A stretch of DNA of 64,000 nt from an uncultured Alphaproteobacteria bacterium. GTDB taxonomy: Bacteria; Pseudomonadota; Alphaproteobacteria; Rs-D84. The DNA is taken from the NCBI GenBank assembly GCA_947175875.1, contig CAMWON010000001.1, forward strand, positions 81,809-145,808, written 5' to 3'. Under the pieces are notes generated by a model. That model was given only the letters and a program-made list of their open reading frames with translations. It searched no databases and was not told the DNA's origin. This document shows, piece by piece, positions 5,042 to 41,773 of the stretch (positions are counted from its first letter, which is position 1; the number at the start of each line of letters is the position of its first letter). The position numbers were made by a program, and so were the translations under genes.

Positions 5042-6397
5042 TTGTCCAGGCAAAGCGGAAATTTTTTATTACAGGCCCTGCTGGCATTGTCCCTGATTTT
5101 TGCGTTCATACCATTTTTGGCAGAGCGTCTGGCGGCGCGCGAAACAGACGCCCAGATGTATTCCGCCACGCGCCAGGTTGATGTTGCGGTGACCGCCGCG
5201 CGCATATTCATCCGTGAAAATGCGTCCAATATCGGATATGACCGGACGGTTGTCGCCGGCGCTGATTTCGGTGATTTGCTGGAACCGTACGGCCTGCCGC
5301 TGGGGTTTGTGCCGCGCACGGCCCTGGGCCAGGATATCAGCCTGATTATCAACAAGACCCCGCAGGAGGTGACGGCGTATCTTGAACTGTCGGGCGGAAA
5401 TCTGTCCGCGGTGCGTGCGGCGGAACTGGCGCGTCGCATCGGGTTCTATGCGACGCCGGTCGGTTCTGTTATAAATGTCGGCATCGCCCTGGACGAGGGG
5501 TTTTCCGACGTCGTTCGCCGCAATGAAAATAATCTGGAGGCGGGCGCCTTTTTAACCGACCTGGACATGGGCGGGTTTGTGTTTGACAATGCCGGCGCCG
5601 CAATTGCGCGAACCGGCACGTTTAATACGGCGATGATGAATACTTTGTCCGTCTCGGGAACGGAAAACGGCCGCAAGGTCCGCAACAAGATAGAGAATTT
5701 GTCCGCCACGCGCGCGGTGTTCCAAAGCAAAAGCGGCGAGGCCGCACTGTCGCTGGTTCGCGGAACGTTAACCGCGGACAGTGTCGATGCGCGAACCGTC
5801 GCGCGGTTTGGCGATGCGGGGAATTTCACTGCGGACACCGCGTCCGTGTACGAGTTTTCCATGACGGCGGGCCGTACGGGATTTTCGGGCCCGGGCGCCT
5901 GGAACGTCCGCGGCAACGTCGTGTCCGACAGAATAAATTTCAGTGTGGAGCGCCTGGACGTGTCGTCGTATATAAATGTCGCCCGCGGCCAGGACGTTTA
6001 TATAAATCCCGATGATTTGGAATACAGCGCGCGCAGCGGAATAGAAACCGACACCTTAATCGCATCCAATGTCACGATGCGCGACCAGACGTCCGACGCG
6101 TTGTCGTCTGGCGGGAACGGTGCGGTTGTTATTGACGTCCGCCCGGCCGGAACGTCTTATCTGCCGGACGCATATGTTAACAATGTCGACAACGCCGCGT
6201 TCGAGATTATCGCGGCCCCCGACGACGCGGACGGCAAGACAGTTGACTGCAAGGCGGTCGTGTCACAGCTTGACGGTTCTTATAATCAGCGCAGCCTGTC
6301 GCAGTACATAATATGCCAGTATGTGTATTGGCAGCGGCTGGAAATGCGAATGAACATAATACAGTGTCTAAAGGAAGGCCGCGGTGACTGCATTTAA
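5042..6397 (+). CDS. Large pilin-like protein 1 (451 aa), class III-signal-like N-terminus with Q at mature position 5 (GspK/PilX-like in lacking E5); TTG start
   Basis: N-terminus MSRQSG|NFLLQALLALSLIFAFIPFLAE. The body is Gly/Ala/Thr/Asp-rich. A strong RBS precedes the start. It overlaps the next gene by 14 nt. Confidence 0.55.
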   Translation: MSRQSGNFLLQALLALSLIFAFIPFLAERLAARETDAQMYSATRQVDVAVTAARIFIRENASNIGYDRTVVAGADFGDLLEPYGLPLGFVPRTALGQDISLIINKTPQEVTAYLELSGGNLSAVRAAELARRIGFYATPVGSVINVGIALDEGFSDVVRRNENNLEAGAFLTDLDMGGFVFDNAGAAIARTGTFNTAMMNTLSVSGTENGRKVRNKIENLSATRAVFQSKSGEAALSLVRGTLTADSVDARTVARFGDAGNFTADTASVYEFSMTAGRTGFSGPGAWNVRGNVVSDRINFSVERLDVSSYINVARGQDVYINPDDLEYSARSGIETDTLIASNVTMRDQTSDALSSGGNGAVVIDVRPAGTSYLPDAYVNNVDNAAFEIIAAPDDADGKTVDCKAVVSQLDGSYNQRSLSQYIICQYVYWQRLEMRMNIIQCLKEGRGDCI

Positions 6398-7601
6398 CAA
6401 AGGCGTTTTTGCAGAAGGGTCGCGTGGCGCCGGTTTAACGGAGGCGTTGCTGGCGATGGCGATTGTCGGCATCGCGGCGCCGTTTGTTTACAGCCAGGTT
6501 GCGGCCACCACGCGCAGTGCGGCCGACATTCGGACCGCGTCGCGGATTATCGATATGCGCGGGCCGGCATTGAATTATGTCCGTATGAATGGCGACGCGT
6601 GGCCGGACACGGCCCAGATACGTTTGACGCCCGAAGATTTGGCGCGGATTGCGGACGGCGCCACCGCCGGATTCATAGACAAATATACAGTGTCCGGCGC
6701 CGGTGTTACCGACATATATCTGGCGTTTGATTTGGGGACGGACCGTGTGCGCACGGCGTCCATTGCGCGCAATATCGGAATAGATGCCGCGGTTGTCGGC
6801 GACGACGGTATCGCATACGGTGCGTCGTGGGCCGTAACCGCGCCGGATTTCATGCCGGGCGATTTGATATACAGAATATCTCGTGATGTCACGGGCGAGG
6901 ATACGGCAAAATATTTGCATCGCGGAACATCGGGCGAAGACGGCCTGAATGTCATGCAGCGCGATTTGAACATGGGCGGCCACAACGTCTATGACATCGG
7001 CGGTGTTGTTGCAAAATCCGCCAAGATAAACGGTGCGACCGCCATGTTCGTCGAAACACAAAGTGTTGCGGCCGACGCGGCGTATTTTTCATCGGGCGCC
7101 AATATAGACGGCGGCGTGGCGTCATTGGGCGCGTTGCGCGTGACCGGCGACGTGACGGGCTTTCGCAATATTGTGGCGACGACGCTCAACGGTGCCGGAT
7201 ACACCACGTCGGGTCGTGTGATTACAGACCGCGCAACGGTCACAAATTCGGTCAATGTCGCACGCGATTTGACGCTGAAATCGGACACCACCCGCACAAT
7301 CAGCGGTTTTGACGGCATCACGGCCAGTACTGTTGCGACGCCGTTCATATCCGCGGACGAAATAATTTTTTATGATAATTTTGGACTGACTCTGTCGGGG
7401 GAGCTGTTAATGTCAACGACGGCGCCGCTGAAAATCGGTTCGTGGACATTCCCATCGACAACGCCGCCAAAGTTTTCAAGATTGACACTGTCGCGCGCCG
7501 AATATCCGGCCGCGGTTCGAAAAACGGAATTTGCACCGATAATGCGGCGCGGATGGATGGACGGGCTTATTGAAAATGAAACTGCGCAGAACAATTTTTA
7601 A
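6384..7601 (+). CDS. Large pilin-like protein 2 (405 aa), prepilin-type N-terminus with E5; GTG start after RBS AAGGAAGG
   Basis: N-terminus ...SRG|AGLTEALLAMAIVGIAAPFVYSQ has G-x4-E, a hydrophobic helix and a conserved P-F. It overlaps both flanking genes. Confidence 0.6.
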   Translation: MTAFNKGVFAEGSRGAGLTEALLAMAIVGIAAPFVYSQVAATTRSAADIRTASRIIDMRGPALNYVRMNGDAWPDTAQIRLTPEDLARIADGATAGFIDKYTVSGAGVTDIYLAFDLGTDRVRTASIARNIGIDAAVVGDDGIAYGASWAVTAPDFMPGDLIYRISRDVTGEDTAKYLHRGTSGEDGLNVMQRDLNMGGHNVYDIGGVVAKSAKINGATAMFVETQSVAADAAYFSSGANIDGGVASLGALRVTGDVTGFRNIVATTLNGAGYTTSGRVITDRATVTNSVNVARDLTLKSDTTRTISGFDGITASTVATPFISADEIIFYDNFGLTLSGELLMSTTAPLKIGSWTFPSTTPPKFSRLTLSRAEYPAAVRKTEFAPIMRRGWMDGLIENETAQNNF

Positions 7602-8886
7602 CGGGCCGTCTGAATGTGGCGGCATGCTGGTTGAATTGATGCTCAGCGTTGCGCTGGCCATGATTGTGATACCTTTTGTTTTCAGATATCATCAGCGCGC
7701 TGTCCGTCGTGCCGAAAATATTGCCGTTTCCCGCCAGATGGAGGGGGTGCAAAGCGCGCTGGAACGTTACATTATGGCGCATCGCGATGAATTGCTGGCG
7801 CCGGTTGGTAAAAATATAACACGTGTTGCGCTGGCGGATTTGGTGCCGTTCGGCGTGTCCGAGGATTTGGTCTCCGCCGCCGGTGACAAGTATCAGCTGC
7901 GCGTGCTAAAGGCCGCCGATTTCAACAGCCAGGCGACCCTGCAGGGTGTGGTCGTATTGAATGACGGCGACATCAGTCCGTTGCGCACGCGCGAGATAGT
8001 GAACATCGCCGGCGACCGCGCGGGTTTTCTGGATTCTGGGCGTGCATACGGTGCGTTCGGCACGTGGAACAGTGCGGCACTGGATTTGGGTCTGGGTGAC
8101 GGGGGCGGAATTGTGGAAACGACGTCCGCCCTGCGCGACAATGCAAAATATTTGTGGCGCGTGCCGTCCACGGATGCGTCCGATGCGACGATGCTGTCGG
8201 CGCTGTCGCTGGGCGGGCACGATATCGCGTCGGCGTCTTTCTTTAACAGCCGCAGCGCCCGCTTTGACGAATTGCTGTCCGTGGGTGAAATCGCCGCCGG
8301 CAACATAATTTTTCAAAACAGAACCTCGATTGATAAAAAGTTGAACGCCGTTTCGTCAACCGTGTCGGGCGCGCTGTCATCGGACTCTAAAAATATGGAC
8401 GTCGCAGGTAAGTTTTCATTGGCCGATTTGGGAAAGTTTTCGGGCTTTTCCGTGTCGGACCTGTACGTGACAAACATGACGCTATCCGGTATCAGCGTCA
8501 GTGACACCGGCGATGTCGCATTGCTTAAAATAAACCAGGCGCTGGACATGACGTCGGGTCGTATCGACGCAATGTTTGTGACGGTGGGGTTTGCGGGGTC
8601 CATAACGCCGCGCCTTGTCGTGCGCAATCGTATCGAAGATTCGATAAATTCGTCTTATTACTGGGATGCGTCGCGCGGTGTGGCGAATTTTTCAGACGTA
8701 TCCTTTGCGGAATTGTCGCGTATGGCGCCGCTGGCCCTGGCGCGCGAGGGGCGGGGCACCACGGCCGCGCAAATATTCGGCGCGGTTGCGGCAAACAAGA
8801 ATGCGACGGCGTCCGATTACATGAATGCGATAACGAAAATCCAGGAAGAGGTTCGTAAAAAATATCGCGCCTTGAATTTGCAATGA
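7576..8886 (+). CDS. Large pilin-like protein 3 (~436 aa), prepilin-type N-terminus with E5
   Basis: N-terminus MKLRRTIFNGPSECG|GMLVELMLSVALAMIVIPFVF closely resembles the G|FTLIELMIV consensus. An alternative TTG start lies at 7570. Confidence 0.65.
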   Translation: MKLRRTIFNGPSECGGMLVELMLSVALAMIVIPFVFRYHQRAVRRAENIAVSRQMEGVQSALERYIMAHRDELLAPVGKNITRVALADLVPFGVSEDLVSAAGDKYQLRVLKAADFNSQATLQGVVVLNDGDISPLRTREIVNIAGDRAGFLDSGRAYGAFGTWNSAALDLGLGDGGGIVETTSALRDNAKYLWRVPSTDASDATMLSALSLGGHDIASASFFNSRSARFDELLSVGEIAAGNIIFQNRTSIDKKLNAVSSTVSGALSSDSKNMDVAGKFSLADLGKFSGFSVSDLYVTNMTLSGISVSDTGDVALLKINQALDMTSGRIDAMFVTVGFAGSITPRLVVRNRIEDSINSSYYWDASRGVANFSDVSFAELSRMAPLALAREGRGTTAAQIFGAVAANKNATASDYMNAITKIQEEVRKKYRALNLQ

Positions 8887-8907: not shown

Positions 8908-9420
8908 ATGAAAGCGGTTTGTGATTTTTGCAAGACGGAATACAGCACCCCCGCAGGGGTGCGCGGCCGTGTGCGCTGTGCGGTGTGCGGGTACGAATGG
9001 ATTATATCCCCGGCGGCGCGGCGCGGCGCATGGCTGACGTTTATTGCGGCGGCGACGGCCGCCTTGGCCGCAATAGTGTTTTCAATCGCGGTAATCACCC
9101 GGCACCAGGTCCAGACCGCGGCCGCATCCCGTCCGTTGGTTGCGACGGTCACGGATATTCATTCCGTTATTGATGCGGCGGGCGTTTCTCACTTTGTGGT
9201 ATCGGGCCGCGTTACGAACCAGTCGGCCGAGATATACGGTGTTCCCGATTTGATAATTGTATCTCGTGATGAAAACGGAAACGAGGTTTCGCGTCAAAAG
9301 TTCATGCCGTCGGCAACATTGCTGGATTCCGGCGCCTCGGTTGAATTTTCGCATACCCTGTCCGCTGCGTCGGACGGCGTGAAAAAGATAACCCTGGAAT
9401 TAAAAGACCAAACGGATTGA
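8908..9420 (+). CDS. ZitP-like protein: N-terminal MJ0042-type zinc ribbon (CxxC...CxxC), one TM helix, C-terminal DUF3426-like periplasmic domain
   Basis: The sequence runs CDFCKTEY...RVRCAVCGYEW, then the TM segment WLTFIAAATAALAAIVFSIAVI, then a beta-rich C-terminal domain. This architecture equals Caulobacter ZitP / DUF3426-family proteins. Confidence 0.7.
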   Translation: MKAVCDFCKTEYSTPAGVRGRVRCAVCGYEWIISPAARRGAWLTFIAAATAALAAIVFSIAVITRHQVQTAAASRPLVATVTDIHSVIDAAGVSHFVVSGRVTNQSAEIYGVPDLIIVSRDENGNEVSRQKFMPSATLLDSGASVEFSHTLSAASDGVKKITLELKDQTD

Positions 9421-10885: not shown

Positions 10886-10913
10886 TTGTCTGAAATTCTT
10901 TTTATGATATAAT
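10886..10913 (+). promoter_or_regulatory. Putative promoter (TTGTCT-16-TATAAT) for the giant Cys-rich protein gene
   Basis: The hexamers were read in the AT-rich intergenic stretch. An RBS (GGAG) precedes the ATG at 10940. Confidence 0.35.
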
Positions 10914-10939
10914 AAAATATAAAAGATGGAGCGAGCAGA

Positions 10940-13900
10940 ATGAGTCTCTTTAAAAAATCAATTGGTTTTCTGGCTGTTTTGACGGCATTTCCGGCGTCAT
11001 ATGCATTGACGGCACGTCCCAGTGTCATCGGCACCGCGTCGGCGCGTATGCCCACAATGACGGCGCTGATTACAAATACCGGCACGTCCGGCACGGGTTC
11101 CACCACAACATCGACGTTGCTGGCCAATGCCGAATGCATTGACGCATACACGTCTTGTATGAAGGGTGGCGACGCCTGTGGTTCTGATTTTGAAGAGTGC
11201 ACGAACAAGGTTCTGTTCCACGGCAAAATGCCTCAGTGTTTGTCCACTTTGGCCCAGTGCAGCACGGCCGGCGTGACCAGCCTGTTCGGTACCGGCACGG
11301 TAACGGCGCTGTCCACCGTTGCGACCAAGAACAGCTATGGCGAGGTGACGGATTACACATACCCCACAGACGGCAGTGTTCTGGGACAATTGATTATCGG
11401 TGCGGCGATATCGAACAAATATGACACATCCACCTGTGTAAAGCGCTATACGTCTTGCTTAAAGAAAGACAGTGTCTGCGGCAATGATTTTGAACTTTGC
11501 ACAACCGACAAAGAATTTAGAAAACAGCGCGTATTCTGCGATTCCACTTTGGCCCGTTGCCAGTCAGAGGGCCTGATAGAACTGTTCGGCTCCGCCAACA
11601 CTTCGACCACGCCCAACGCGACCAGCCGCATTGGCGAAATGATTGCCGAAGGCGCGGCATTGGCGGCTGTAAACGCGGTATCCACCTGCTACAAGGTTGT
11701 GGACCAGTGTATCTTGAACGCATGTGCGGCGAATCCGTACAAGTGCTTTGAAAACAGCACGAACACCACCGTAAATTTGGTTGAGGCCATCAACACCGGC
11801 GTCGCCACGGCGGAAAACACGGCCGCATCCACAATTGCGAACGTTACATCCGGCATGGATATCGTAACGAAATCCAACGTCGCGTCTTATATCAAGAACA
11901 GCTGTCTGGATACAATCGGATCCAACAAATACTGCTATGCCACGTTTATCGGCAACGGCCAGATGCCGACCGCGTCCCAGCTGAAGGACGAAGACAACCA
12001 GGAAGAAATCTATGACGAGGCGTATTCCGCCCGCATGAGCAGCGCCATGAAGGCCAAGATTTCCGACTTGGTCGATCAGTTTGACACCAAGGCAAAGCAA
12101 AAGTGCACCGAAACAATCAAGACATGCGTAATGCGCGTCTGCGGTTCCGGTTCTGGCGCGGCCTGCTATTCCCAGGTGTTCGGCAATCGTGACAAGTCCA
12201 TTAACAACAGCGTTACATATCCGGAACTGCAGACCGGCTGTGCGGCGGTTGTCAACACCGATGCGTATTGTAAGTATGCCGCGGCAAATCCGAATACAAC
12301 CGGCGGTTATACATATTCTTATATAAACAACGATGCGTTCAGCATTCTGTTCCCGGAATATGAATCCGGCGGCAACGACCCGATTGGCGTTATCTCTGCG
12401 TTGAACGCGACGCTGGCCAACAGCTACAGCGATGCGGCCATCGCCACGATGAAGCGCCAGTGCCAGGCGGTCGCAACCAGTTGCGTAAAATCCATGTGCG
12501 GCGCGGATTATCAGAACTGCTATCGCAACCGTACGGACGTTTATTCTTCTTTGACCAACACCGGCGATTCGTCGTTCGATAAAAGCATGAACAAGGTTGG
12601 CGGCGTTCTGGATTACACAATCGTTTTGGGCCTGTGCCTGGATACGGTTAAGAACGCGTCTGTCTGCGAAGAACATCTGGCGATTGAACGCAACAAATTG
12701 AAAATTGCAAACAACAGCAGTGCGTCCGTATGGGGCGGTGCGAACAGCACGCGCGAAGGCTGGATTGACGCCGGCTCTGCCACGGCCGTGACAGCGACCA
12801 GCGAACAGGTTGCGGCCACCGACGAAAACGGCAATGCGCTGTGCACAACCAAGGGCGGCGGCGACCAGGGCGTATGCTACAGCGTTGATGCCTCCGGCAA
12901 TATTTATGACCAGCCTGTATACATCTCATATACGACATATGTTGAATCACAGGCGGCGTCGACCCTGTTCAAGGATTTGATTTACGACCTTGAGAAAGAG
13001 GCCCAGGCGAAATATAACGCGAAATTGACGAAACAGCAGAACATGTGCATGTCGTCCAACCAGGGTGGCGTTATGGGCAATCGTGAAATGGGCAGCACGT
13101 TCCTGTGGGTAAAGCTGAAATCCAACACGGTGCCAAAGGCATACCCGGTATCGGGTTTAAAGCCGTCGCAGTTCACGGCCAGCAACGACCTGTACGGTTC
13201 ATTCTGCCGTGTCCGCGTAACACTGCAGTCCGATGACAAAAAGATTCAGGACGTTATCGCCAAGGGTACCGATTGGGCCACGGCATATTTCGCGGCGGGT
13301 GATACGTTTACCTGCGGCTCCTGGATTCCGGAAAAAGCCCTGACGCAGTTGGCGGATGCAGTGGCGGCGGATGCCCGCGCGGACGAGGCCCGTGGCAACG
13401 GCAGAACCAAGGCTTGGATGGCTGTTCTGGGAACTGTCGCCGGTGGTGCATTGGGTGGTGTCGCAACCAACAAGATGCAGGACGGCGCATTCTTGGGCGG
13501 ACTTCTGGGAACCACTGGCAGCACTAAAAGTAGTGATGTGGCGGAACAATTGGGTGTGTGTGCTGGTGCTGCACGTGGCTATCAAGATGCAAAATCTGTT
13601 GATGACAAGGCCTCTTATTTGGCTCGTGCATCACGTGCGGTTAAACAACTGCAAGGTGCTGACAAAAATAAATTCGCAACGGATAACATTTCTAGCAAAT
13701 GTGCCAGAGCCACAGATGCAAGAAGTTGTTTAAGTGATTTGTTGTATGCGGCCAGCGTTGCCCATCGGGACTATGCTGATCTTGCTGATAAAACAGTAAC
13801 TGCCGTATCTGGCACTGCACGGGCTACAGAAAAGTCCACAACAGTAAAGAGTTCCGGTCAAGTTTTGACTGCAGATAGCTTGAGAGCACAGGTTCCTCAG

Positions 13901-14515
13901 TATACAAGACATGAATTGGCCGGCGTATCATGCGAATTCAATTGTGATGCAGTTGTTTCTGGCAAATATACTGGTACCAATACAGCGGTCTGCGGAAGTG
14001 TCACACAAAAATCTTGGGTGCCTACAACCGGAAAGTATTGCATGACAGAATCTAATGGTGGAATTCAAAAAGATGCAGATGTACGTTATATTGAATATAC
14101 TTATACTGTATATTACACCGATAATGATGCTGTTGCGTATAATCAAACATTAACAAATAGTGCATCTCAGGTCACTCAACATTCTAATGATGTAGAAACA
14201 GCGCGTAAAAAAGCGAATAGTGCGATGGCTGATTTGGAACAAGCGTGTGATTTAAGCGCACTGAATTCCGACCAGGCTAAGAAAGACGCACAAAAGCGTT
14301 CCATCACAACGGCCGTCGGTGCGGGTGTTGGTGCGATTGCGGGCGGTGTGCTGGCCTATCAGGCGACCAAGAGCATCCAGGATTCCAAACTGGACAGCGT
14401 TGAAAAAGCCGCCTATGACGAATGGATGAACGAAGTCGGTAATCATATCCGTTGCTTTGTCGGTGGCGACGAGGTCGGTATGTACGGCGATATCATCAGC
14501 ACGTCGATGGAGTAA
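10940..14515 (+). CDS. Giant (1191 aa) secreted/membrane-anchored Cys-rich repeat protein of unknown function
   Basis: It has a signal peptide and duplicated CxxYTSC[ML]K...C G[SN]DFE[EL]CT...LFG modules plus further C-x5-C-x3-C motifs. Two glycine-zipper TM-like segments are present (TVAGGALGGVA..., GAGVGAIAGGVLA). A low-GC block lies at 13500-14230. Confidence 0.7.
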   Translation: MSLFKKSIGFLAVLTAFPASYALTARPSVIGTASARMPTMTALITNTGTSGTGSTTTSTLLANAECIDAYTSCMKGGDACGSDFEECTNKVLFHGKMPQCLSTLAQCSTAGVTSLFGTGTVTALSTVATKNSYGEVTDYTYPTDGSVLGQLIIGAAISNKYDTSTCVKRYTSCLKKDSVCGNDFELCTTDKEFRKQRVFCDSTLARCQSEGLIELFGSANTSTTPNATSRIGEMIAEGAALAAVNAVSTCYKVVDQCILNACAANPYKCFENSTNTTVNLVEAINTGVATAENTAASTIANVTSGMDIVTKSNVASYIKNSCLDTIGSNKYCYATFIGNGQMPTASQLKDEDNQEEIYDEAYSARMSSAMKAKISDLVDQFDTKAKQKCTETIKTCVMRVCGSGSGAACYSQVFGNRDKSINNSVTYPELQTGCAAVVNTDAYCKYAAANPNTTGGYTYSYINNDAFSILFPEYESGGNDPIGVISALNATLANSYSDAAIATMKRQCQAVATSCVKSMCGADYQNCYRNRTDVYSSLTNTGDSSFDKSMNKVGGVLDYTIVLGLCLDTVKNASVCEEHLAIERNKLKIANNSSASVWGGANSTREGWIDAGSATAVTATSEQVAATDENGNALCTTKGGGDQGVCYSVDASGNIYDQPVYISYTTYVESQAASTLFKDLIYDLEKEAQAKYNAKLTKQQNMCMSSNQGGVMGNREMGSTFLWVKLKSNTVPKAYPVSGLKPSQFTASNDLYGSFCRVRVTLQSDDKKIQDVIAKGTDWATAYFAAGDTFTCGSWIPEKALTQLADAVAADARADEARGNGRTKAWMAVLGTVAGGALGGVATNKMQDGAFLGGLLGTTGSTKSSDVAEQLGVCAGAARGYQDAKSVDDKASYLARASRAVKQLQGADKNKFATDNISSKCARATDARSCLSDLLYAASVAHRDYADLADKTVTAVSGTARATEKSTTVKSSGQVLTADSLRAQVPQYTRHELAGVSCEFNCDAVVSGKYTGTNTAVCGSVTQKSWVPTTGKYCMTESNGGIQKDADVRYIEYTYTVYYTDNDAVAYNQTLTNSASQVTQHSNDVETARKKANSAMADLEQACDLSALNSDQAKKDAQKRSITTAVGAGVGAIAGGVLAYQATKSIQDSKLDSVEKAAYDEWMNEVGNHIRCFVGGDEVGMYGDIISTSME

Positions 14516-14531: not shown

Positions 14532-14558
14532 AGCGCCCCTAAATGGGGCGTTTTTATT
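14532..14558 (+). terminator. Rho-independent terminator (GCGCCCC-taaat-GGGGCG + T-run)
   Basis: Hairpin plus TTTTTATTT directly after the stop at 14515. Confidence 0.7.
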
Positions 14559-14580
14559 TGACCGGATTACATACAACTTT

Positions 14581-14735: not shown

Positions 14736-15017
14736 TTATCTTGTCACCGTACGCAGAGCCTGCATTGCGACGCCAGTATATTTCAATTGATTTCGTGCGT
14801 CATAATATGCACCGTATGCGTCTATAAATGCGTTGGCGGTTGACTTTGGGCCGCTGGGCCATATCGCGTATCCCGTCGCCAGTTCTATTAACAGGCGCGT
14901 GCCACCCAACGGCCGCCATTCCAGCGGCAGATTGATTAAGTCGTCATATCCGTGACGCATCGCCACGCGACGGCACTCTGCGATAAGAGATTCCAGTTCC
15001 CGGTTGCTTATTTTCAT
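14736..15017 (-). CDS. Hypothetical small protein; 3' end of rlmN overlaps its start
   Basis: Likely start is MKISNRELESLIAECRR... No recognised motif; could be spurious. Confidence 0.3.
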   Translation of the reverse strand: MKISNRELESLIAECRRVAMRHGYDDLINLPLEWRPLGGTRLLIELATGYAIWPSGPKSTANAFIDAYGAYYDARNQLKYTGVAMQALRTVTR

Positions 15018-16123
15018 TTGTTGTTTTTCTTTGCGTTGTTCAGTCGCAGCTGGCCGCATGCGCTGCCGATGTCCGTGCCGCGTTCGCGACGAATGCGCGT
15101 GTGGATGCCATGCTGGATAAGTGTGTCTTGGAAACGATGAACCGCGTTGCCCGATGGCGATGCGAAATCACGCTCGTCCACCGCGTTCCAGGGTATTAAA
15201 TTTACCATGCAATTTTTGCCATGCAATAGCGTTGCCAATTTTTCCGCATACTCTTCCGTCGCGTTGTATAATTCCGTCTCTCCGTCCGAATTTTTGCGCC
15301 CCAGCAGTATGTATTCAATCATCAACTGGCGGTTGTGCAGATTTGTAAAATCATCGGCCGCGGCCAGAACCTCGCCCAGTTTGTATTTATTGTTAATAGG
15401 CATGATTTGACCGCGCAGTTCGTCCGTCGGCGCGTGCAGCGATATCGCCAGGTTAATCGGCCGCCCCCATTCAATAAGGCGGCGAATGCCCGGTACAATT
15501 CCGCATGTGGAAACCGTAATCCGGCGCCACCCGATGCCTAAATCTTTGTTTGCGCGCTCTATAAAATCAATAACGTTTTCCGTGTTCTGCAACGGTTCGC
15601 CCGTGCCCATGATAACAATGTGCGACACATCGCCGTTGTTTGCATCGCCGTTTGGCCGAACGTTTGTTTTATCGGCACGGTTGCGACGCAGTTCCCATTG
15701 TGCCACCAAAACCTGGGCGAATATTTCATTCGCCGTTAAATTGCGTTTCAGCCCCAGCAGCGTGCTGGCACAGAATCTGCACCCCATGGCGCATCCGGCC
15801 TGAGAGCTCACACATACACTGTTTCCGTATGTTGTCCGCATCAGCACGCATTCAATCTGCTCGCCATCCTGCATTTCCAATAAAAATTTGGTCGTTTCGC
15901 CGTCGCCGGAATCCAGGCGCCGCACAATCTTGCACGGCAATGTCTGGGCCGCGTCGTCCAAATCGCGCCGCAGGTTTTCCGGCAGATTTTTCATCGACGC
16001 AAAATCCGGTGCCCCGCGCCCCAGCCATTCGCGAATTTGGGCCGCACGAAATTTGGGCAGGCCGCGTGCCGTCACAAATTCGGCCAGTTCGGCGTCTGTA
16101 AAATTGAATAAAACGGGTTTCAT
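15014..16123 (-). CDS. rlmN: 23S rRNA (adenine2503-C2)/tRNA methyltransferase RlmN (radical SAM)
   Basis: CxxxCxxC is present (CAMGCRFCAS). The rest matches the RlmN/Cfr family. Confidence 0.92.
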   Translation of the reverse strand: MKPVLFNFTDAELAEFVTARGLPKFRAAQIREWLGRGAPDFASMKNLPENLRRDLDDAAQTLPCKIVRRLDSGDGETTKFLLEMQDGEQIECVLMRTTYGNSVCVSSQAGCAMGCRFCASTLLGLKRNLTANEIFAQVLVAQWELRRNRADKTNVRPNGDANNGDVSHIVIMGTGEPLQNTENVIDFIERANKDLGIGWRRITVSTCGIVPGIRRLIEWGRPINLAISLHAPTDELRGQIMPINNKYKLGEVLAAADDFTNLHNRQLMIEYILLGRKNSDGETELYNATEEYAEKLATLLHGKNCMVNLIPWNAVDERDFASPSGNAVHRFQDTLIQHGIHTRIRRERGTDIGSACGQLRLNNAKKNNK

Positions 16124-25449: not shown

Positions 25450-25469
25450 GGTTGCCTCTCCTTTTCTTT

Positions 25470-26522
25470 TTATTTTGTTGTTTTTGCCATGCGGCGCAAA
25501 ATGGCGTAATGCCGCATGAACTCGGTCCCCGGACCGGCCGGATAACCCATATACCGCTGTCCGTCCGGGATATTGCGGAATACACCGGACTGCGCACCAA
25601 CCTCTGCGTCATTTCCGATATGCACCCCATTTGCAATTCCAACATGCCCGCCCAGCAGCGCCCGGTCGCCAATAACCGTGCCGCCGGCGATTCCAACGCC
25701 CGATGCCAAAAAGCATTCCGCGCCGATAACGACACCGTGCGCAATCTGGCACAGGTTGTCAATCTTTGTCCCGTCGCCCACGCGCGTATCCGTCATTGCG
25801 CCGCGGTCAATGCATGTGTTCGCACCGACCGACACGCGGTCGCCCAAAACAACGCGGCCCGTGTGCGGGATAAATACGTTGTGCCCGTCCTGGCGGGTGT
25901 ATCCAAAACCGTCTTTGCCGATAACGGCGCCGGCGTTGATTACGCAATCCGCGCCGATTGTGGCGTTTTCAATGTGCGCGCCCGTCTGCACGATTGTGCC
26001 GCGCCCGATTGTGACGTTCGGCCCAATGTATGCACCGGGATATATTTTTACGTCCGGCTCTATCACTGCGCCGCGTTCAATTGTTGCGAACTGGGCCACG
26101 TAAACGGTTTTCTTTTTGCGAAAGAACACCGTGCGGTCGATAACCGCGCGGCGGTCGATGCCGTAACGCGGCTTTTCCTTATAAATTTCGCCCAGGATTT
26201 TTACAATGTTTCCGCGTGGGCTGTCCGTTATCAACAGTGTCGCCCCCTGTGGCGCGTGTTTCGCCATCTCGGGCTGCACCAAAATAACGGATGCGCGGGT
26301 GTTTTCCAGCACCTCTATCGGCAGAATTTTAAACGCCGCACTGTTTTGCTCGGTCGAATAAAACGCCAGCTGGCCCGGTTTTGCATCGGCAATCGGCGCC
26401 ACGCCATTAACCGGCGTCGCGGCGTCCCCGCGCAGTTCCAATCCAAATTTTTCGGCGATTTCGCCAGCGGTCGTTTTCGTGGCCTGACCGCGGCCGACTA
26501 AAGACATAATTATTCTAAACAT
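25470..26522 (-). CDS. lpxD: UDP-3-O-(3-hydroxyacyl)glucosamine N-acyltransferase LpxD
   Basis: Long array of left-handed beta-helix hexapeptide repeats plus a LpxD N-terminal domain. The start is taken at [10 protein letters not shown]. Confidence 0.9.
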
Positions 26523-27042: not shown

Positions 27043-28944
27043 ATGAAATCTTTTACACACATTTTGTTGGTGGCACTGATGCTGGGGCCGTGTGGCGCCG
27101 CGTTTGCAGCCGCACCGTTGTCAGGTACGTTGGGCAGTAATTTAACCGCCTATAATCCGAACGGCGGGGTAATGAACAATAATGAGTGGAACTCCATGAT
27201 GAACAGTCGCAGTGGGTCCGGCGCGGCCGCCACGGCGGACTTTGGAAATTGTAATTCGGTTATTCTGCGGTGTGCATCACCAAAATGTGCAAACGGCGGA
27301 TGCACGTCGATTGATGTTGCGATGCCGATTGTTGCGGGTTGCGTTGCGTCAAACGCTGCATGCAAACAGTATGGCGATGAATTGACCCAGTATATCGCGG
27401 CCCAGCTGGTTGCAAATTCAACGGCAAAAACAAACGCACAGATGGCGGCGGCGCAAAATGCCGCGGCCGAACAAAGCGCCATGCAAATGCAACAGATGCA
27501 GGCCCAGATGCAGCAGATGCAGGCGGACATGGCCGCACAGAATGCCCAGCAGATTGCGCAGTTGCAGTCTGCACTGGAAGAACAACAGCGCGCGACCGAG
27601 GCCGCCCGTGCCGAAGCGGCGGCCGCCGCCACCGCGGCGTCAAACGCCGCCCAGTCGTCTGCCACGGTTACCGCGCCGGTTTCCGCCGCCACCACCACGG
27701 CATCGTCCGGCGCCACCCCCACAACGGTTATGGAGGGGTTGTCCGAGGCGCAGCGTATCGCCGCCAATGCCGGCGTATCCGCCGATATATTGGCCCGCGA
27801 ACAGGTCGCCGGCCAGATTATGACGTCGCTGGAACGGGCCCAGGTCAATTTGAACAAGGCCAAGGCGGCGATGCAGAACGCATTTTCGTATGCCGGGTGC
27901 ACAACATCGGGCGACAACTGTGTCGGACCAAAGCGCGTGTCTGTTTTCCGCCAAAAGGCGATGGAGTTTTTCGAACCGTATGACGCGGTTCTGGACGAAT
28001 TGTATGACGCACTGGTTACGGCCCAGTCCGTCGGTGTTGATATTACCGATATTTACATGATGTTAAACGGCAGCTGTAACGTCTGGGGCGAGTATCTGTG
28101 TAATGGCGGTACGGTGTTGGATAATTCTGGTGCCGGAAATACGGAAAAAGTTTGTAAAACAACGACTGATGCAACAGGCAAAGAAACCACAACATGTGAA
28201 ACGGTCACGAAAAGTTCCACGCAGTCCGGCGGGAACATGGTTTGGGCTAAATATGATAAAGACAGCTGCCCGGTTAATGGCGGACAATCGAAAAAGTATG
28301 GTTGGTCGCGCGGTTTAAACAAGGAGTGTTATCAAGACACAACCATCCCGCCCGAAGATTCAACGGCCTGTACACTTAACCGTACACTGACGGATATGGA
28401 TTATGTTCAGCGCAATTTCCTGTTTGCCGAAGCGGGCGATATAGACGAACACGTTCGTATCGGATGCGCGTCGTCTGCGCTGGAAAACAGCAAGTTCTTC
28501 CGCAACCGCAAAAAGGGCTCCAGCATTGATATTGAGACACTGGAACGCATCGTTTCCCAGGATGCGCCGGCAATGTTCGGTTCCAACCGATTTGGCGCCT
28601 CAAGCGACCCGGCGATTGACGGTCCGAAATACTGTGCGGTCAATGCCACCAGCTATATGGATTTGCAAAAGGCGGCATCGCTGAAAAAACTGCCCGCGCG
28701 CGTCTGCGTCAGTGACAAGTCGCTGGCCGCAAATCTGTCGGCGAACGGATTGCTGTCCATGTCCGATATCGATGCGATGATAAAGGCGGGCGGAAACAGC
28801 AACAGCTCCGGCGTGACGGGTAATACGGACCCGAAATATTCGGACAAGGAAACTTGCAATAAATGGCAGGGCGAATGGAGTAATGGCGCCTGCAAGTGCG
28901 ACGGCAAAAAACAATGGTGGAACGGTGTTTGTGTTTTCAGATAA
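27043..28944 (+). CDS. Secreted Cys-rich protein (633 aa) with a Met/Gln-rich coiled-coil segment
   Basis: Signal peptide MKSFTHILLVALMLGPCGAAFA. An N-terminal Cys cluster (CNSVILRCASPKCANGGC) is followed by MQMQQMQAQMQQMQADMAAQNAQQIAQLQ and then Ala/Thr-rich and Cys-rich C-terminal domains. Confidence 0.65.
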   Translation: MKSFTHILLVALMLGPCGAAFAAAPLSGTLGSNLTAYNPNGGVMNNNEWNSMMNSRSGSGAAATADFGNCNSVILRCASPKCANGGCTSIDVAMPIVAGCVASNAACKQYGDELTQYIAAQLVANSTAKTNAQMAAAQNAAAEQSAMQMQQMQAQMQQMQADMAAQNAQQIAQLQSALEEQQRATEAARAEAAAAATAASNAAQSSATVTAPVSAATTTASSGATPTTVMEGLSEAQRIAANAGVSADILAREQVAGQIMTSLERAQVNLNKAKAAMQNAFSYAGCTTSGDNCVGPKRVSVFRQKAMEFFEPYDAVLDELYDALVTAQSVGVDITDIYMMLNGSCNVWGEYLCNGGTVLDNSGAGNTEKVCKTTTDATGKETTTCETVTKSSTQSGGNMVWAKYDKDSCPVNGGQSKKYGWSRGLNKECYQDTTIPPEDSTACTLNRTLTDMDYVQRNFLFAEAGDIDEHVRIGCASSALENSKFFRNRKKGSSIDIETLERIVSQDAPAMFGSNRFGASSDPAIDGPKYCAVNATSYMDLQKAASLKKLPARVCVSDKSLAANLSANGLLSMSDIDAMIKAGGNSNSSGVTGNTDPKYSDKETCNKWQGEWSNGACKCDGKKQWWNGVCVFR

Positions 28945-30355: not shown

Positions 30356-31003
30356 ATGAAACAAATTGCTATTTTTGTCGCGGCGGCGGCTGTTCTGGCC
30401 GGGTGCACGACTGTGAACCCCTATACGGGCCAGTCCCAGACGTCCAAGGCCGTATGGGGCACCGCAATTGGTACCGCGGCCGGTGCGGCGACAGGTGCGC
30501 TGGTATCCAAAAATCATGGCGCGGGTGCGATTGTGGGCGGTCTGGCCGGTGCGGCTGTTGGTGGCGGCGTCGGATATTATCTGGACGTTCAAGAGGCGGA
30601 ACTTCGCCAAGAATTGGCATCGACCGGTGTTGGGGTTGAGCGTACCAATGACAGCATTCGTTTGATTATGCCGGGCAATATCACGTTTAAGACCGATTCT
30701 TCGGATATCAACGCCAATTTCTATGCGACGTTGAATTCCGTGGCCAAGGTTTTAAAGAAATACAGCAATTCAACCGTAATGGTTTCCGGCTACACCGACA
30801 GCACGGGCAGCATGGAATACAACCAGAACTTGTCGCGCAGTCGTGCGTCGGCGGTCGCCGCATACCTGCAGGGCCAGGGTGTCGCTGCCAACCGGTTTGA
30901 AATTTTGGGCATGGGCCCGTCAAACCCGATTGCGTCGAACGACACGGCCGCGGGTCGCGCCCAGAACCGTCGCGTGGAAATCAAGATTATTCCGAACAAA
31001 TAA
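30356..31003 (+). CDS. OmpA-family lipoprotein (glycine-zipper N-region plus OmpA C-terminal domain)
   Basis: Lipobox LAGCTT. Gly-zipper GTAIGTAAGAATGALV...GGLAGAAVGGGVGYY. OmpA-C motifs (SGYTDSTGSMEYNQNLSRSRASAVAAYL...NRRVEIKI). Confidence 0.8.
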   Translation: MKQIAIFVAAAAVLAGCTTVNPYTGQSQTSKAVWGTAIGTAAGAATGALVSKNHGAGAIVGGLAGAAVGGGVGYYLDVQEAELRQELASTGVGVERTNDSIRLIMPGNITFKTDSSDINANFYATLNSVAKVLKKYSNSTVMVSGYTDSTGSMEYNQNLSRSRASAVAAYLQGQGVAANRFEILGMGPSNPIASNDTAAGRAQNRRVEIKIIPNK

Positions 31004-31111: not shown

Positions 31112-31951
31112 TTATGCCGCGAATTTAAGAAGCCGGTCGTCGTTTGCAATAACGGCATATCGATTGCGAATAAATATGCGGCGATATAAAGGCCGGCCGT
31201 TTAGTATCACCCCTGTTTTTGTCGTTGTAAAATCTTTGTCCATCCCCAGTACTTCAAATTTATCGGAATCGTAATCCAGCAAAAATGTAACGGGCACCCC
31301 CATTATTCCTGTATAGTCCGTCGGTATTTCTTTTATCTTGTTAACATTTATCGCATCGGCGTTATCGTATTTTGGATAATGTGCTTCATGCCCGTAATAT
31401 CGGCTGTGCGGCGCGCGGGCATTCTTTTTGCGATTTGTCGCCAGATTTGTGAACCAGCATATGTTGCCAAACTTTTTTAAGCGCCCGTCGGGATGTATAA
31501 ATACTCTGGGATACGTGCAGCCGGTGCGCACCTTGTTGGCGCGTATCAAAGAAAATGTCTGTTCGTATGCGACGGCGTTCATGTTTCCGATAATCAAAAA
31601 ACGTTTGTCATGCGCGGCCAGCAGGTCCATAAATTCCCGAAACAAGGAAAAAGGCGGATTTGTGACGATGACGTCCGCCCGTTTCAGCAATTCAACCGAT
31701 GCCGCACTGCGAAAGTCATCCCCGCCCCGGCCGCCGCTGAACCACACGTCACGGATTTTGCCGGCGGCCTTTAATTCCATAAAGTATTTCACAAACGCAC
31801 TGTCCGCGGTGTCACAGTTGCAATAAATGGTCTTATTAAAAAAATGCGACAGGTAATTGTCGCATTCTTTCCGTACATCCTCGTAACGCGTATAAAATTC
31901 GTCATTTTTGACCGCGCGGGCCCGGTGCAAGTTTGCGCTTTTTGCTGACAT
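31112..31951 (-). CDS. Orphan N6-adenine DNA methyltransferase of the EcoRI-methylase-like family
   Basis: N-terminal KNDEFYTRYEDV motif and catalytic IVTNPPFS (D/N-PP-F) motif. GC is lower than neighbouring genes. No adjacent restriction endonuclease. Confidence 0.65.
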   Translation of the reverse strand: MSAKSANLHRARAVKNDEFYTRYEDVRKECDNYLSHFFNKTIYCNCDTADSAFVKYFMELKAAGKIRDVWFSGGRGGDDFRSAASVELLKRADVIVTNPPFSLFREFMDLLAAHDKRFLIIGNMNAVAYEQTFSLIRANKVRTGCTYPRVFIHPDGRLKKFGNICWFTNLATNRKKNARAPHSRYYGHEAHYPKYDNADAINVNKIKEIPTDYTGIMGVPVTFLLDYDSDKFEVLGMDKDFTTTKTGVILNGRPLYRRIFIRNRYAVIANDDRLLKFAA

Positions 31952-32103
31952 GGTGCCTCTCTCCTGTTTAAATAAAAAAAAAGCCCCGCAAATGCGGGGA
32001 AATAAAAAACGGACAGATTTACCTGTCCGCGGATATGAATACTATATCAAAAATCGCCCCAAAAAGCAATAGAAAACGCCCCGACCGGGGCGTTTATGCA
32101 TTT

Positions 32104-33450
32104 TTACGGGCACTGGGCCAGCTGGTTTAACACATTTTGTACGTCTGTGTTAATGGATACCGTTATCTCGCGCTGCAGGCCGTCTATATATGTATAGTCG
32201 AATTTAGACTCGGCAAATTCCGGTGCGGCCGCATATGCGTCGCGGAACGGGGCCAGCATCGCCGTAAACCACTGGCGCCCACGGCACAGACATCCGTTTC
32301 GAACGTCCGCCGCAACGGCTGCGGTGGCGGTGTTGGGGTATTTTGCGTCAAATTCCGCATCCGTCATCATCAGACAGCGGTTGCCCAGACCGTAAAAGTT
32401 CGCGTCATCGGCCAGGAATTTGTAAACCAGGCCGTCGGATGCGCCGGCTTTCTTTAAAGAATACGCCATTCCGTCGGTACAACATGCCTGGGCGCTGCGC
32501 ATCAGCATCTTGTATCTGTCCAGCAGCGGTGCCGCCGTCGGGTCGGTCGCGGTAATGTTTTTGTTGCATTTCGCTTTTGCGATAAACGCATCCAGCAATT
32601 CCGGGCGCAGTTTATTGCTGCGCGGGGCGACTGTTTCGCGAACCATGGGCTTGCGCCGCCATATTTCACATTCCGTTTCAGAATCAAACGGGCATCCGTC
32701 GCCGCCAAAGGCAATCGCGATTACGTTTGTCATATCCTGGGCCACATATTGGGGCTTTGGCGCCGGCATGTTCATGTTGTTCACGACCAGCGTGTCCGTC
32801 CACAGGTTCTCGGCCGGCTTTTGCGGGGCCAATAATTCTTCAACGCGCGCGCGCGTGGTGGCCGCATCGGCCATGTTTTGATTATACAGCTCTATCGCAT
32901 CCACTGATTCGGTTGCCACCGCCGGTGCGGTGCCGTATTGTGCAAAGACCGATTCGGCCGGACTGTCAATCTCGCGCAGGTAAATTTCCGGCGCCGGTTC
33001 CAGATACCAGTCGCTGAAATCCTTTTTCTTGTAATTTACAATCGAATCGTCCCAAATCGGCACGCCGTCGCGCCAATCGACCGTTTTGTCGTATCCGCGG
33101 GCCTTGTAATTGCCGTTTGTCCCGTCATACAGGGCGGGGCGGGTGTCTTCCGGCACCGGCTTTATGCTTAATGTCTTTATATTACGCATCGGCACCGCGC
33201 CTGCATATATATATTGCGGTCGTGGCGCGTATGCCGGCGCCGACGGTACGGTGTTCATAACCGGGGCCGCAGGCTGGACGGCCGTAACAGTCGTCGTTTC
33301 CTCTATCACGCCCAGAACCGTCGGCTCTGCCGCAACCGGTGCAATATCACAACCGGCGCCGACACATTCCGAGCCGTGCGCCATCGCCACCGGACACATC
33401 AGCGCCAGGGACGTCAAAATAACAAGTCTTCCTTTCATAATACGAATCAT
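32104..33450 (-). CDS. Secreted hypothetical protein (~445 aa, 14 Cys)
   Basis: Signal peptide M(IRIM)KGRLVILTSLALMCPVAMA. The ORF-track start at 33585 has no SD and runs through a repeat-rich leader, so the downstream start is preferred. Confidence 0.5.
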   Translation of the reverse strand: MIRIMKGRLVILTSLALMCPVAMAHGSECVGAGCDIAPVAAEPTVLGVIEETTTVTAVQPAAPVMNTVPSAPAYAPRPQYIYAGAVPMRNIKTLSIKPVPEDTRPALYDGTNGNYKARGYDKTVDWRDGVPIWDDSIVNYKKKDFSDWYLEPAPEIYLREIDSPAESVFAQYGTAPAVATESVDAIELYNQNMADAATTRARVEELLAPQKPAENLWTDTLVVNNMNMPAPKPQYVAQDMTNVIAIAFGGDGCPFDSETECEIWRRKPMVRETVAPRSNKLRPELLDAFIAKAKCNKNITATDPTAAPLLDRYKMLMRSAQACCTDGMAYSLKKAGASDGLVYKFLADDANFYGLGNRCLMMTDAEFDAKYPNTATAAVAADVRNGCLCRGRQWFTAMLAPFRDAYAAAPEFAESKFDYTYIDGLQREITVSINTDVQNVLNQLAQCP

Positions 33451-33709
33451 ATCACAAAAAAGGGCCTTTTTAAAACATAAAAATGCCAAAAAGACGAATC
33501 GAATGACCGAATCAGGTATATTTGGGGTTCTTATATGCCTCCTCTGAATCGGTTTTTTCGCCGAATCCGAATCAATTTTTGCCAAAAAAAGCCCCCGGCC
33601 AAAAAAAAATTAAAAAAAATCATCAGGTAAAAAATCCCGGATTTCCGGCGATTTTTCCTAAAAAATGGGCCGGCCCAAAATTTTTTTGAAATTATTTTTG
33701 AAATTGCGC

Positions 33710-41191: not shown

Positions 41192-41773
41192 ATGCATTTT
41201 TTTATTCCCCCTATTATGCCTAAGGAAAACGGTCCTTTTTTTGCGGCGCTATTTACTGCGGGCGGTGTAAATGGTGAAGATTTATCTTGTGCCGATTGCT
41301 ACAAGTGTGTTCAGTATGCCGGGTCGAGTTGTGTAAGATGTGTGTATGATTCGAACTATTGTGAAGTTTTGGAGTTCCCAGATGAGGAATGTCAGGGGGG
41401 GGCACAGTGGGACAGCATACAGCGCAAATGCGTCTGCCCTGATACTATTGCGGCGGTTTGTTTCAACCCGTGGGAGTTTTTTGATTCTTCCGACAGTGTA
41501 TGCGGCTGCGCCGGTGTGGCGTGTATATCCGGCAAATATCCTGTGGCGGCCAATACTTGCGCCGATTGTCCGTCGCCGGATTTCACATTGTCGTCCTGCA
41601 GTGTTCAAAGCAGCGTTGGTTATGCAACGGATACGGAAATGCTTATTGGCGGATATAACGGCTGTTATATCCCCGGTGGCTGTGCGGGCAAAGACGATAC
41701 CGGTACGTTCGAACTGATTGCGGATTGTAAGTACAGTACGGCACTGGAAGCCGTAGAGGACGTGGATTACTAA
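41192..41773 (+). CDS. Cys-rich hypothetical protein (193 aa, 20 Cys)
   Basis: CADCYKCVQYAGSSCVRCVYDSNYCEV...CVCPD...CGCAGVACISG...CADCPSPD pattern. The N-terminal signal is weak. Confidence 0.45.
   Translation: MHFFIPPIMPKENGPFFAALFTAGGVNGEDLSCADCYKCVQYAGSSCVRCVYDSNYCEVLEFPDEECQGGAQWDSIQRKCVCPDTIAAVCFNPWEFFDSSDSVCGCAGVACISGKYPVAANTCADCPSPDFTLSSCSVQSSVGYATDTEMLIGGYNGCYIPGGCAGKDDTGTFELIADCKYSTALEAVEDVDY

Follow-up and report, generated by a model that had tools for sequence, protein, structure and literature searches.

A conserved cysteine-rich protein of Rs-D84 gut Alphaproteobacteria carries a hypervariable, probably recombining cassette between two glycine zippers

Introduction

The locus described here raises the question of what a very large, cysteine-rich and predicted exported protein does for a genome-reduced gut bacterium, and which part of the cell it faces. 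The locus lies in a stretch of 64,000 nucleotides (hereafter the window, whose coordinates are used throughout) from an uncultured Alphaproteobacteria bacterium of the lineage Rs-D84 (GenBank assembly GCA_947175875.1, contig CAMWON010000001.1, positions 81,809 to 145,808 of the forward strand). In this window an uninterrupted open reading frame (ORF) at 10940..14515 (+), starting with ATG, encodes a protein of 1191 aa, here called the 10940 protein. Our analysis finds a strongly conserved body joined to an internal cassette that differs widely even among close strains. We favour, at about an even chance, the reading that the 10940 protein is anchored in the envelope and displays a polymorphic, recombining domain outward, towards phages, host immunity or partner cells.

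Genomes of the order Rs-D84 are smaller than 1 Mb and lack respiration and most biosynthesis; these bacteria probably depend on partner cells via uncharacterised membrane proteins, and nothing is known of their mechanism of cell contact (PMC12306168). We found no description of 10940-type proteins in the literature on Enterousia and Rs-D84. The window is a piece of core chromosome, encoding an rRNA operon, Der, DnaX, RluD, RlmN, LptD, LptFG, NusA and IF-2, together with PBP1A, MraY, FtsW, MurG, a class I aminoacyl-tRNA synthetase and GyrA. The host is therefore a diderm with lipopolysaccharide and peptidoglycan.

Results

A hypervariable cassette lies within a conserved protein

In an alignment of the 10940 protein with 120 homologs, aa 61-800 and the last ~70 residues are conserved, whereas aa ~860-1100 are near-unalignable, variable in length and rich in gaps, with identity below 0.2. 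This hypervariable cassette (aa ~862-1113; 13523..14278, +) sits between two glycine zippers and is bracketed by C874 and C1103. Its limits follow from a nucleotide-level comparison with the related locus L047, to which the window aligns by blastn at 92-94% identity up to nt ~13523; the alignment resumes at nt ~14279, with no detectable homology between the two points. Strains whose N-terminal domains (N-domains) are 98-99% identical have cassettes that are 26-33% identical. The homolog P0008, for instance, shares 99% identity with the 10940 protein over aa 23-820 and 27% over aa 874-1103, and for the homolog P0005 the values are 98% in the N-domain and 33% in the cassette.

Divergence at fourfold-degenerate sites reaches 0.63-0.80 in the cassette and is thus saturated; the N-domain diverges at these sites by only 0.12-0.23 and the C-terminal segments by 0-0.17. 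Because these sites are saturated in the cassette and little diverged in its flanks, the cassette has a much older and separate history. Mosaics of the reverse kind are also present. Between P0106 and P0120, identity is 76% in the N-domain but 98% in the cassette, with the whole C-terminal third common to both, and P0006 and P0015 share 81% identity in the N-domain and 88% in the cassette. The P0106/P0120 pair shows 97-100% identity over the first ~80 and the last ~230 residues (from zipper 1 to the C-terminus) and only ~55-85% in the middle of the N-domain, indicating that breakpoints also fall inside the conserved body. These patterns indicate that the cassette is replaced by recombination and is not just fast-evolving.

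The cassettes of 164 full-length members fall into 81 allele clusters below 35% identity, with lengths of ~50-320 aa. Many alleles are short, low-complexity helical segments, and a Pfam scan of the ten longest found no known domain, toxin and enzyme domains included. A second copy or template of the cassette was not found in the window at either the DNA or the protein level, and silent donor cassettes with conserved flanks were found neither in the window nor within 8 kb of the gene at 49 loci. The lack of a second copy in the window means that a local mechanism, be it a diversity-generating retroelement or silent cassettes, is not supported. The cassette was also considered as the target of such a retroelement, which finds no support: the window contains no template repeat, and what distinguishes the alleles is replacement of the whole segment and indels, without changes confined to particular sites. 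The variation thus resembles exchange of alleles in the population more than programmed switching within the cell.

The gene is core to one gut lineage and strongly constrained

Exhaustive HMMER searches of 1.84 billion proteins retrieved 237 representatives at E <=1e-3, all from metagenome-assembled genomes (MAGs) of gut Alphaproteobacteria of the Rs-D84 / Candidatus (Ca.) Enterousia type, so the lineage specificity proposed in a preliminary description of this DNA holds. Relatives occur in 45 species-level genomes of uncultured gut Alphaproteobacteria, many of them named Candidatus Enterousia, from host sources that include human, ruminant and termite guts. At least 882 homologs have lengths of 1020-1220 aa, and the named family members, all annotated as hypothetical, lack Pfam domains. 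Every locus examined has a single copy of the gene, and no paralog lies within 8 kb of it at 49 loci. It is thus a core gene of Rs-D84 / Ca. Enterousia-type gut Alphaproteobacteria.

All 35 Cys of aa 66-792 are conserved in at least 99% of the 121 aligned sequences. Compared with the related locus L020, the N-domain retains 90-92% amino acid identity despite a fourfold-site divergence of 0.46-0.49, which indicates that the body of the protein is under strong purifying selection. The same values, with an intact ORF and the retained Cys, leave no room for the alternative that the ORF is a pseudogene.

Cysteine parity points to an oxidising compartment

The number of Cys in the cassette is even (2, 4, 6, 8 or 10) in 159 of the 164 members and in 79 of the 81 non-redundant allele clusters (binomial P ~1e-21), and of the two bracketing residues C874 is retained in 100% and C1103 in 97% of sequences. 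The mature N-domain has an odd number of Cys, mostly 35, and adding the single invariant C1172 of the C-terminal tail makes the sum even in 162 of 164 members. On the simplest reading of these counts, the cassette would be an internally disulfide-bonded domain closed at its base, and the C-terminal tail would be disulfide-linked to the body. Even counts thus suggest that both the cassette and the N-domain together with the tail are probably disulfide-bonded and lie in an oxidising extracytoplasmic space; the parity of the cassette argues against a variable loop in the cytoplasm.

The N-terminus, MSLFKKSIGFLAVLTAFPASYA followed by LT after the putative cleavage point, has a basic n-region, a hydrophobic core and an S-Y-A cleavage motif, and on inspection of its letters it reads as a type I Sec signal peptide (aa 1-23; 10940..11008, +), with a Kyte-Doolittle hydropathy value (KD19) of 1.49. 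No lipobox with a Cys at +1 is present, the segment ending in FPASYA and continuing as LTARPSV. The signal peptide claimed in the preliminary description is borne out on this reading. Together, signal peptide and Cys parity support export of the protein and make disulfide bonding probable.

The zippers resemble those of outer-membrane proteins

Glycine zipper 1 (aa 822-860; 13403..13519, +) consists of a basic cluster, the invariant W826, a helix rich in G, A and V and an IQD motif, with a KD19 of 1.41; glycine zipper 2 (aa 1119-1140; 14294..14359, +) has a basic cluster and a G/A/V-rich helix, with a KD19 of 1.59. Both share one design of basic cluster, Trp, ~18-residue G/A/V-rich helix and IQD motif, the Trp of zipper 2 being found in most homologs and replaced by Ser in this strain. 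At least 95% of sequences retain each of W826, G831, G839, G1127 and G1135, G831 being invariant and G839 near-invariant. Two such segments had been described before, the second at the C-terminus. Both are real (aa 826-860 and 1121-1139), but the second lies ~50 aa short of the end of the protein.

The window itself supplies a standard against which the hydrophobicity of the zippers can be judged. The ORF at 30356-31003 (+) encodes an OmpA-family lipoprotein with an LAGC lipobox and a Pfam-significant Gly-zipper_Omp / YMGG / 'Glycine zipper 2TM' domain, and it is the sole window ORF touched by the 10940 family profile (E = 0.0012). The KD19 of its zipper is 1.39, compared with 2.5-2.9 for inner-membrane helices of this host. 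Glycine-zipper helices of SlyB, YfgH, OsmB and YiaD are described as residing in the outer membrane (bioRxiv 10.64898/2025.12.22.696046). The zippers of the 10940 protein resemble this outer-membrane class, from which we infer anchoring at the outer membrane.

These data bear on whether the 10940 protein could instead reside in the inner membrane, with the zippers as stop-transfer or re-entry helices, the N-domain and tail in the periplasm and the variable region as a poorly constrained cytoplasmic linker. Membrane proteins inserted by Sec classically show just such a signal peptide with two hydrophobic segments of ~19 residues after it, and basic clusters precede both zipper segments. However, at 1.4-1.6 the zippers fall far below the inner-membrane helices of the host and match the lipoprotein zipper. 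The even Cys counts of nearly all cassette clusters and their conserved bracketing Cys also oppose a cytoplasmic location, where disulfides do not normally form, and relaxed constraint cannot yield saturated synonymous divergence beside flanks at 0.12-0.23. We consider an inner-membrane protein very unlikely.

A second alternative keeps the zippers at the outer membrane and dispenses with display. The protein would then be purely periplasmic and structural or stabilising, with SlyB/YfgH-like zippers in the inner leaflet of the outer membrane and the variable region as a periplasmic spacer. Outer-membrane glycine-zipper stabilisers exist as a precedent, the protein has sub-threshold Gly-zipper_Omp and OsmB matches and a likeness to the host's own Gly-zipper OmpA-family protein, the Cys parity fits the periplasm equally well, and the very strong conservation of the body is as for a structural role. 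Against this, a spacer offers no obvious reason for 81 unrelated alleles, swaps between lineages and cassettes much older than their flanks; the zippers do not reach the Pfam thresholds, and the lipobox of SlyB, OsmB and YfgH is missing. On balance we judge this unlikely, and prefer the reading in which the cassette is displayed outward.

The body is built from regularly spaced cysteines

The 44 Cys of the 10940 protein are spaced with striking regularity. The pattern C-x6-C is found 13 times where composition predicts 1.6, and C-x6-C-x4-6-C seven times, with 0.16 expected; neither count was reached in any of 2000 shuffles. Two six-Cys modules stand at the start of the body, M1 (aa 63-118; 11126..11293, +) and M2 (aa 163-218; 11426..11593, +), each with the pattern C-x6-C-x6-C-x6-C-x12-C-x6-C (aa 66-107 and 166-207) leading on to an LFG motif. 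Identical Cys spacing and an hhalign probability of 99.2% (E 2.6e-19) at 39% identity indicate that they are homologous, true duplicates. The preliminary description had recognised the duplication of these ~50-aa modules; its term "near-identical" is an overstatement, since they are only 39% identical. In distant members of the family, at 26-33% identity, only a single six-Cys module stands at the N-terminus, and the rest of the architecture is kept.

Three further units of the pattern C-x6-C-x4-C-x6/7-C (aa 250-332, 389-444 and 508-576; 11687..12667, +) lie within what is probably a helical-bundle rod, each followed ~25-50 residues later by a C-x9-C pair. Such units had been noted earlier as C-x5-C-x3-C; they exist, but that spacing is off by one residue. 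Beyond the Cys motif, their mutual similarity is not significant. The body continues with a conserved alpha/beta domain (aa 633-800; 12836..13339, +), which contains C635 and C646 and the "odd" C703, C756 and C792. Beyond the cassette and zipper 2, the conserved C-terminal tail (aa 1141-1191; 14360..14512, +) comprises a helix and three short strands and carries the invariant C1172.

An AlphaFold2 (AF2) model built from 69 homologs has a long helical region at aa 63-590 and the alpha/beta domain at aa ~633-800 (predicted local distance difference test, pLDDT, ~82). The variable region of this strain is modelled as a helical stalk with a beta-sheet head at a pLDDT of 86-93. When the alpha/beta domain was modelled alone (aa 612-826), its pLDDT fell to 59, too poor for a fold search. 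Between signal peptide and body lie a motif, TARPSV..RMPTMT, with invariant columns R26, R36 and P38, and a Ser/Thr-rich linker (together 11009..11125, +); this zone is modelled poorly, with a pLDDT below 50 for aa 1-62. The motif itself (aa 24-40; 11009-11059) can still be made out in family members of 26-33% identity, and it may act as a signal for sorting or anchoring.

No known domain or fold was recognised

Pfam and NCBIfam scans of the 10940 protein gave nothing above threshold, the only sub-threshold signal being glycine-zipper/OsmB at aa 1115-1144. EGF, TNFR, chlamydial OmcB, TraN and CHCH domains did not appear among Pfam-A matches even at E up to 1, and the two Cys motifs of the protein (C-x6-C-x6-C-x6-C-x12-C-x6-C, and C-x6-C-x4-C-x6-C with C-x9-C) differ from the CHCH pattern. 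Identity to helical-bundle proteins is 6-15%, a likeness of architecture only. A sequence-profile search of the PDB with the family returned nothing significant (best E 0.03, to low-complexity helices), and Foldseek found no match at E <=1e-3 in the PDB or in BFVD. These searches agree with the earlier statement that the modules match no known domain. Scans against PHROGs and PADLOC gave no match either, and a phage-derived or defence-system protein is ruled against by the lack of PHROGs, PADLOC and BFVD matches.

The weakest matches of all raise a third alternative. Glycine zippers occur in pore-forming proteins, and the 10940 protein shares a long helical stalk, a distal head and a hydrophobic segment with XaxA/YaxA, MakB and IpaD/SipD. 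It might thus be a secreted effector whose zippers insert into the membrane of a partner or host cell, acting as a pore-former, a translocator or a polymorphic toxin of the contact-dependent kind, with the variable domain setting specificity or toxicity; the host lineage is thought to take metabolites from other cells. However, the matches to XaxA/YaxA (E 0.24-0.48), MakB, IpaD and SipD are non-significant or to generic helical bundles. Their E values run from 0.24 to ~3, and TM-scores are below 0.35. Unlike those proteins, the 10940 protein has no partner subunit gene or type III secretion context, and its gene is chromosomal, single-copy and core. Unlike the polymorphic toxins CdiA, Rhs and MafB, its variable region is internal (aa 862-1113), not C-terminal, and is followed by a conserved zipper and tail. 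The ten longest alleles hold no toxin or enzyme domain and many others are short low-complexity helical segments. No immunity-like gene adjoins the 10940 gene; downstream lie a terminator and the convergent rlmN operon. A membrane-inserting effector is therefore very improbable, and outward display by an envelope-anchored protein remains the reading we prefer.

Transcription signals and gene neighbourhood

Upstream of the gene we found a putative promoter (10886..10913, +), TTGTCT and TATAAT separated by a 16-nt spacer, with a TG extended -10 element, which is a match to consensus only (10/12). A GGAG ribosome-binding site, identified by eye, lies 8 nt 5' of the ATG (10928..10931, +). Directly past the stop codon stands a hairpin resembling an intrinsic terminator, CGCCCC-TAAAT-GGGGCG with a T-run (14534..14559, +); a terminator scan called it on the minus strand, and read on the plus strand it is the same hairpin followed by TTTTTATTT. 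Because of the promoter-like site, the ribosome-binding site and the hairpin, the 10940 gene is suggested to be a separate transcription unit.

The block upstream, comprising three ORFs of 405-451 aa, a zinc-ribbon/transmembrane protein, a small ORF and rluD, is kept in order and strand in 41 of the 45 species; the downstream side varies among the 45 loci. The three ORFs (5042-6397, 6384-7601 and 7570-8886, +) are consecutive and overlapping, and neither Pfam nor NCBIfam matches any of them. Across ~40 species they keep prepilin-like N-termini, in which Gly at -1 is accompanied by a hydrophobic helix and a PF motif that is also conserved; two of the ORFs have Glu at +5, and the third has Gln there, like GspK-type minor pseudopilins. 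They may form a set of unusually large pseudopilins. Between them and rluD, in 41 of the 45 loci, is the ORF 8908-9420 (+), whose 170-aa product combines a CxxC...CxxC zinc ribbon at the N-terminus with one transmembrane helix and a sub-threshold FxLYD domain (19.6 bits, cut-off 23). A functional coupling of the 10940 gene to the pilin-like block was considered, and it is weakened by the intervening housekeeping gene rluD, by the 10940 gene's own promoter and terminator, and further by the distant member P0217, which sits in a different neighbourhood. We treat the linkage as a lead, not as evidence.

Downstream, a 107-aa ORF without a signal peptide (14736-15059, -) is convergent with the 10940 gene and overlaps the start of rlmN. 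It evolves fast, with 42-77% identity where the adjoining rlmN shows 87-98%, and is detectable in 5 of the 45 loci. Further along the window, an unannotated ORF of 493 aa (32104-33585) adjoins the gene for an EcoRI-type adenine methyltransferase (31112-31951, -) just upstream of the rRNA operon; the two (31112-33585, -) may be a restriction-modification pair.

Other cysteine-rich proteins of the window

Additional ORFs without a Pfam match lie at 25452-26501, 41192-41773 and 53052-54389 (+), two of them Cys-rich (19 Cys in 349 aa and 19 Cys in 193 aa), and this genome seems to be rich in unannotated proteins of the Cys-rich kind. The ORF 27043-28944 (+) encodes an exported Cys-rich protein of 633 aa, whose six-Cys module (aa 70-107) has the spacing 6-4-4-12-6; a long tract at aa ~125-200 is Gln/Ala/Met-rich and coiled-coil-like, and the C-terminus is rich in Cys. 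The ORF 44215-46302 (+) encodes a Cys-rich protein of 695 aa with an N-terminal low-complexity Ser/Thr/Arg-rich tract of ~130 residues, in which R70, R87, R92, R112, R117, R134, R139 and R147 are invariant; it is 100% identical to K2L25_00620 of an Alphaproteobacteria MAG.

The preliminary description had placed the 10940, 27043 and 44215 proteins in one lineage-specific family of secreted Cys-rich proteins, possibly of the surface layer. The three proteins share signal-type N-termini and a Cys content of 3.6-3.7%; none contains a Pfam domain, and their homologs come from one and the same MAG lineage. The motif C-x6-C is enriched in each, modestly so in the 27043 and 44215 proteins (p = 0.04 and 0.009), which have one C-x6-C-x4-C apiece. 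In the best local hhalign alignment, the six Cys of 27043 aa 70-107 match C389...C444 of the 10940 protein. However, BLASTP E values are at least 0.07, the 10940 hidden Markov model gives E = 0.085 for the 27043 protein and no match for the 44215 protein, and three hhalign profile comparisons give probabilities of 0.08%, 1.4% and 2.1%, all of them non-significant. Each of the two other proteins belongs to its own lineage-restricted, unannotated family without a Pfam domain (at least 1258 and 1201 matches, respectively), and neither has the architecture of glycine zippers around a variable cassette. The noted similarity in Cys spacing thus comes down to a common C-x6-C motif without demonstrable homology, compatible with either a shared structural trick or very old homology, and a single family is most improbable. 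A surface-layer role found no support.

Discussion

In the reading that we favour, the body (aa ~63-820) would be a rod of disulfide-stapled helical bundles with the alpha/beta domain, onto which the C-terminal tail would probably fold back through one disulfide, and the two outer-membrane-type zippers would serve as its anchors in or at the outer membrane. The domain between them, which is hypervariable across strains, would be self-contained and internally disulfide-bonded. Its alleles would be swapped by homologous recombination, with the conserved flanks serving as anchors, and their diversity would be kept by diversifying or frequency-dependent selection. A diverse, recombining cassette is the pattern expected of a cell part exposed to phages, host immunity or a partner cell. 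On the evidence of such a cassette between zippers, the host-interaction role suggested in the preliminary description is plausible.

Several points weigh against this reading. The sequences behind the mosaics and the parity counts are phylogenetically related, which is mitigated by clustering them into 81 alleles. Surface exposure is deduced only from variability and Cys parity, and no Dsb oxidoreductase is among the window ORFs scanned. The full-length AF2 model is moderate (pLDDT 68, predicted template modelling score 0.39), although its single domains are reasonably confident; both zippers have a pLDDT below 50. Zipper 2 scores below the family thresholds, with 13.8 bits for PF13488 (cut-off 25) and 15.1 for OsmB NF007830 (cut-off 98). 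The equal polarity of the two zippers is somewhat awkward for a simple antiparallel membrane hairpin, and alpha-helical spanning of the outer membrane is uncommon. Disulfide pairing, outer-membrane anchoring, surface exposure and the selective agent are all deduced and not observed.

A more specific topology, which we regard as rather unlikely, would have the zippers form an alpha-helical hairpin across the outer membrane, with the disulfide-closed variable head outside and the 36-Cys rod in the periplasm. If true, this would make the 10940 protein an undescribed class of outer-membrane-spanning variable adhesin or receptor, whose head might set the specificity for partner cells, host or phage in these obligately dependent, genome-reduced gut Alphaproteobacteria, perhaps in cooperation with the conserved upstream trio of giant pseudopilin-like proteins.

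Two groups of known proteins offer points of comparison. Like the outer-membrane glycine-zipper ("2TM") group of SlyB, YfgH, OsmB, YiaD, Pcp and the Rickettsia 17-kDa antigen (PF13488, PF05433 and PF13441), the 10940 protein has short, moderately hydrophobic G/A/V-rich helices of the GxxxG type in an exported envelope protein. Unlike these proteins, it has no lipobox, exceeds 1000 aa and scores under the family thresholds, and in place of a compact hairpin its zippers are separated by a variable domain of 50-320 aa. To our knowledge, neither a 36-Cys helical rod nor a hypervariable insert has been reported for any known 2TM member.

Anaplasma Msp2/P44 and Neisseria Opa and pilin are variable surface proteins in which conserved flanks enclose a central hypervariable region. 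The 10940 family likewise has a conserved frame, allele exchange that would be mediated by the flanks and many unrelated alleles among close strains. However, those proteins are beta-barrels or pilins, whereas the 10940 protein is predicted to be a helical rod with glycine zippers and has no sequence or fold relationship to them; nor does the window contain donor pseudogene cassettes or repeats. A conserved frame with an exchanged, variable and exposed insert is thus a known logic, and what is new here is the architecture and the family.

Rs-D84 / Ca. Enterousia bacteria are widespread in human, mouse, ruminant and insect guts and are presumed to live off other cells. The 10940 gene fills 3.6 kb of a genome of less than 1 Mb and encodes one of its most constrained proteins, and its cassette bears one of the clearest signatures of diversifying allele exchange visible from sequence alone. 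The cassette could serve as a practical marker for strain typing. The family offers an unclassified disulfide-stapled helical module, and its placing of a variable domain between outer-membrane-type glycine zippers may be a new mode of display. For the biology of this lineage, the 10940 protein is a prime candidate for the interface with phages, partner cells or host immunity.

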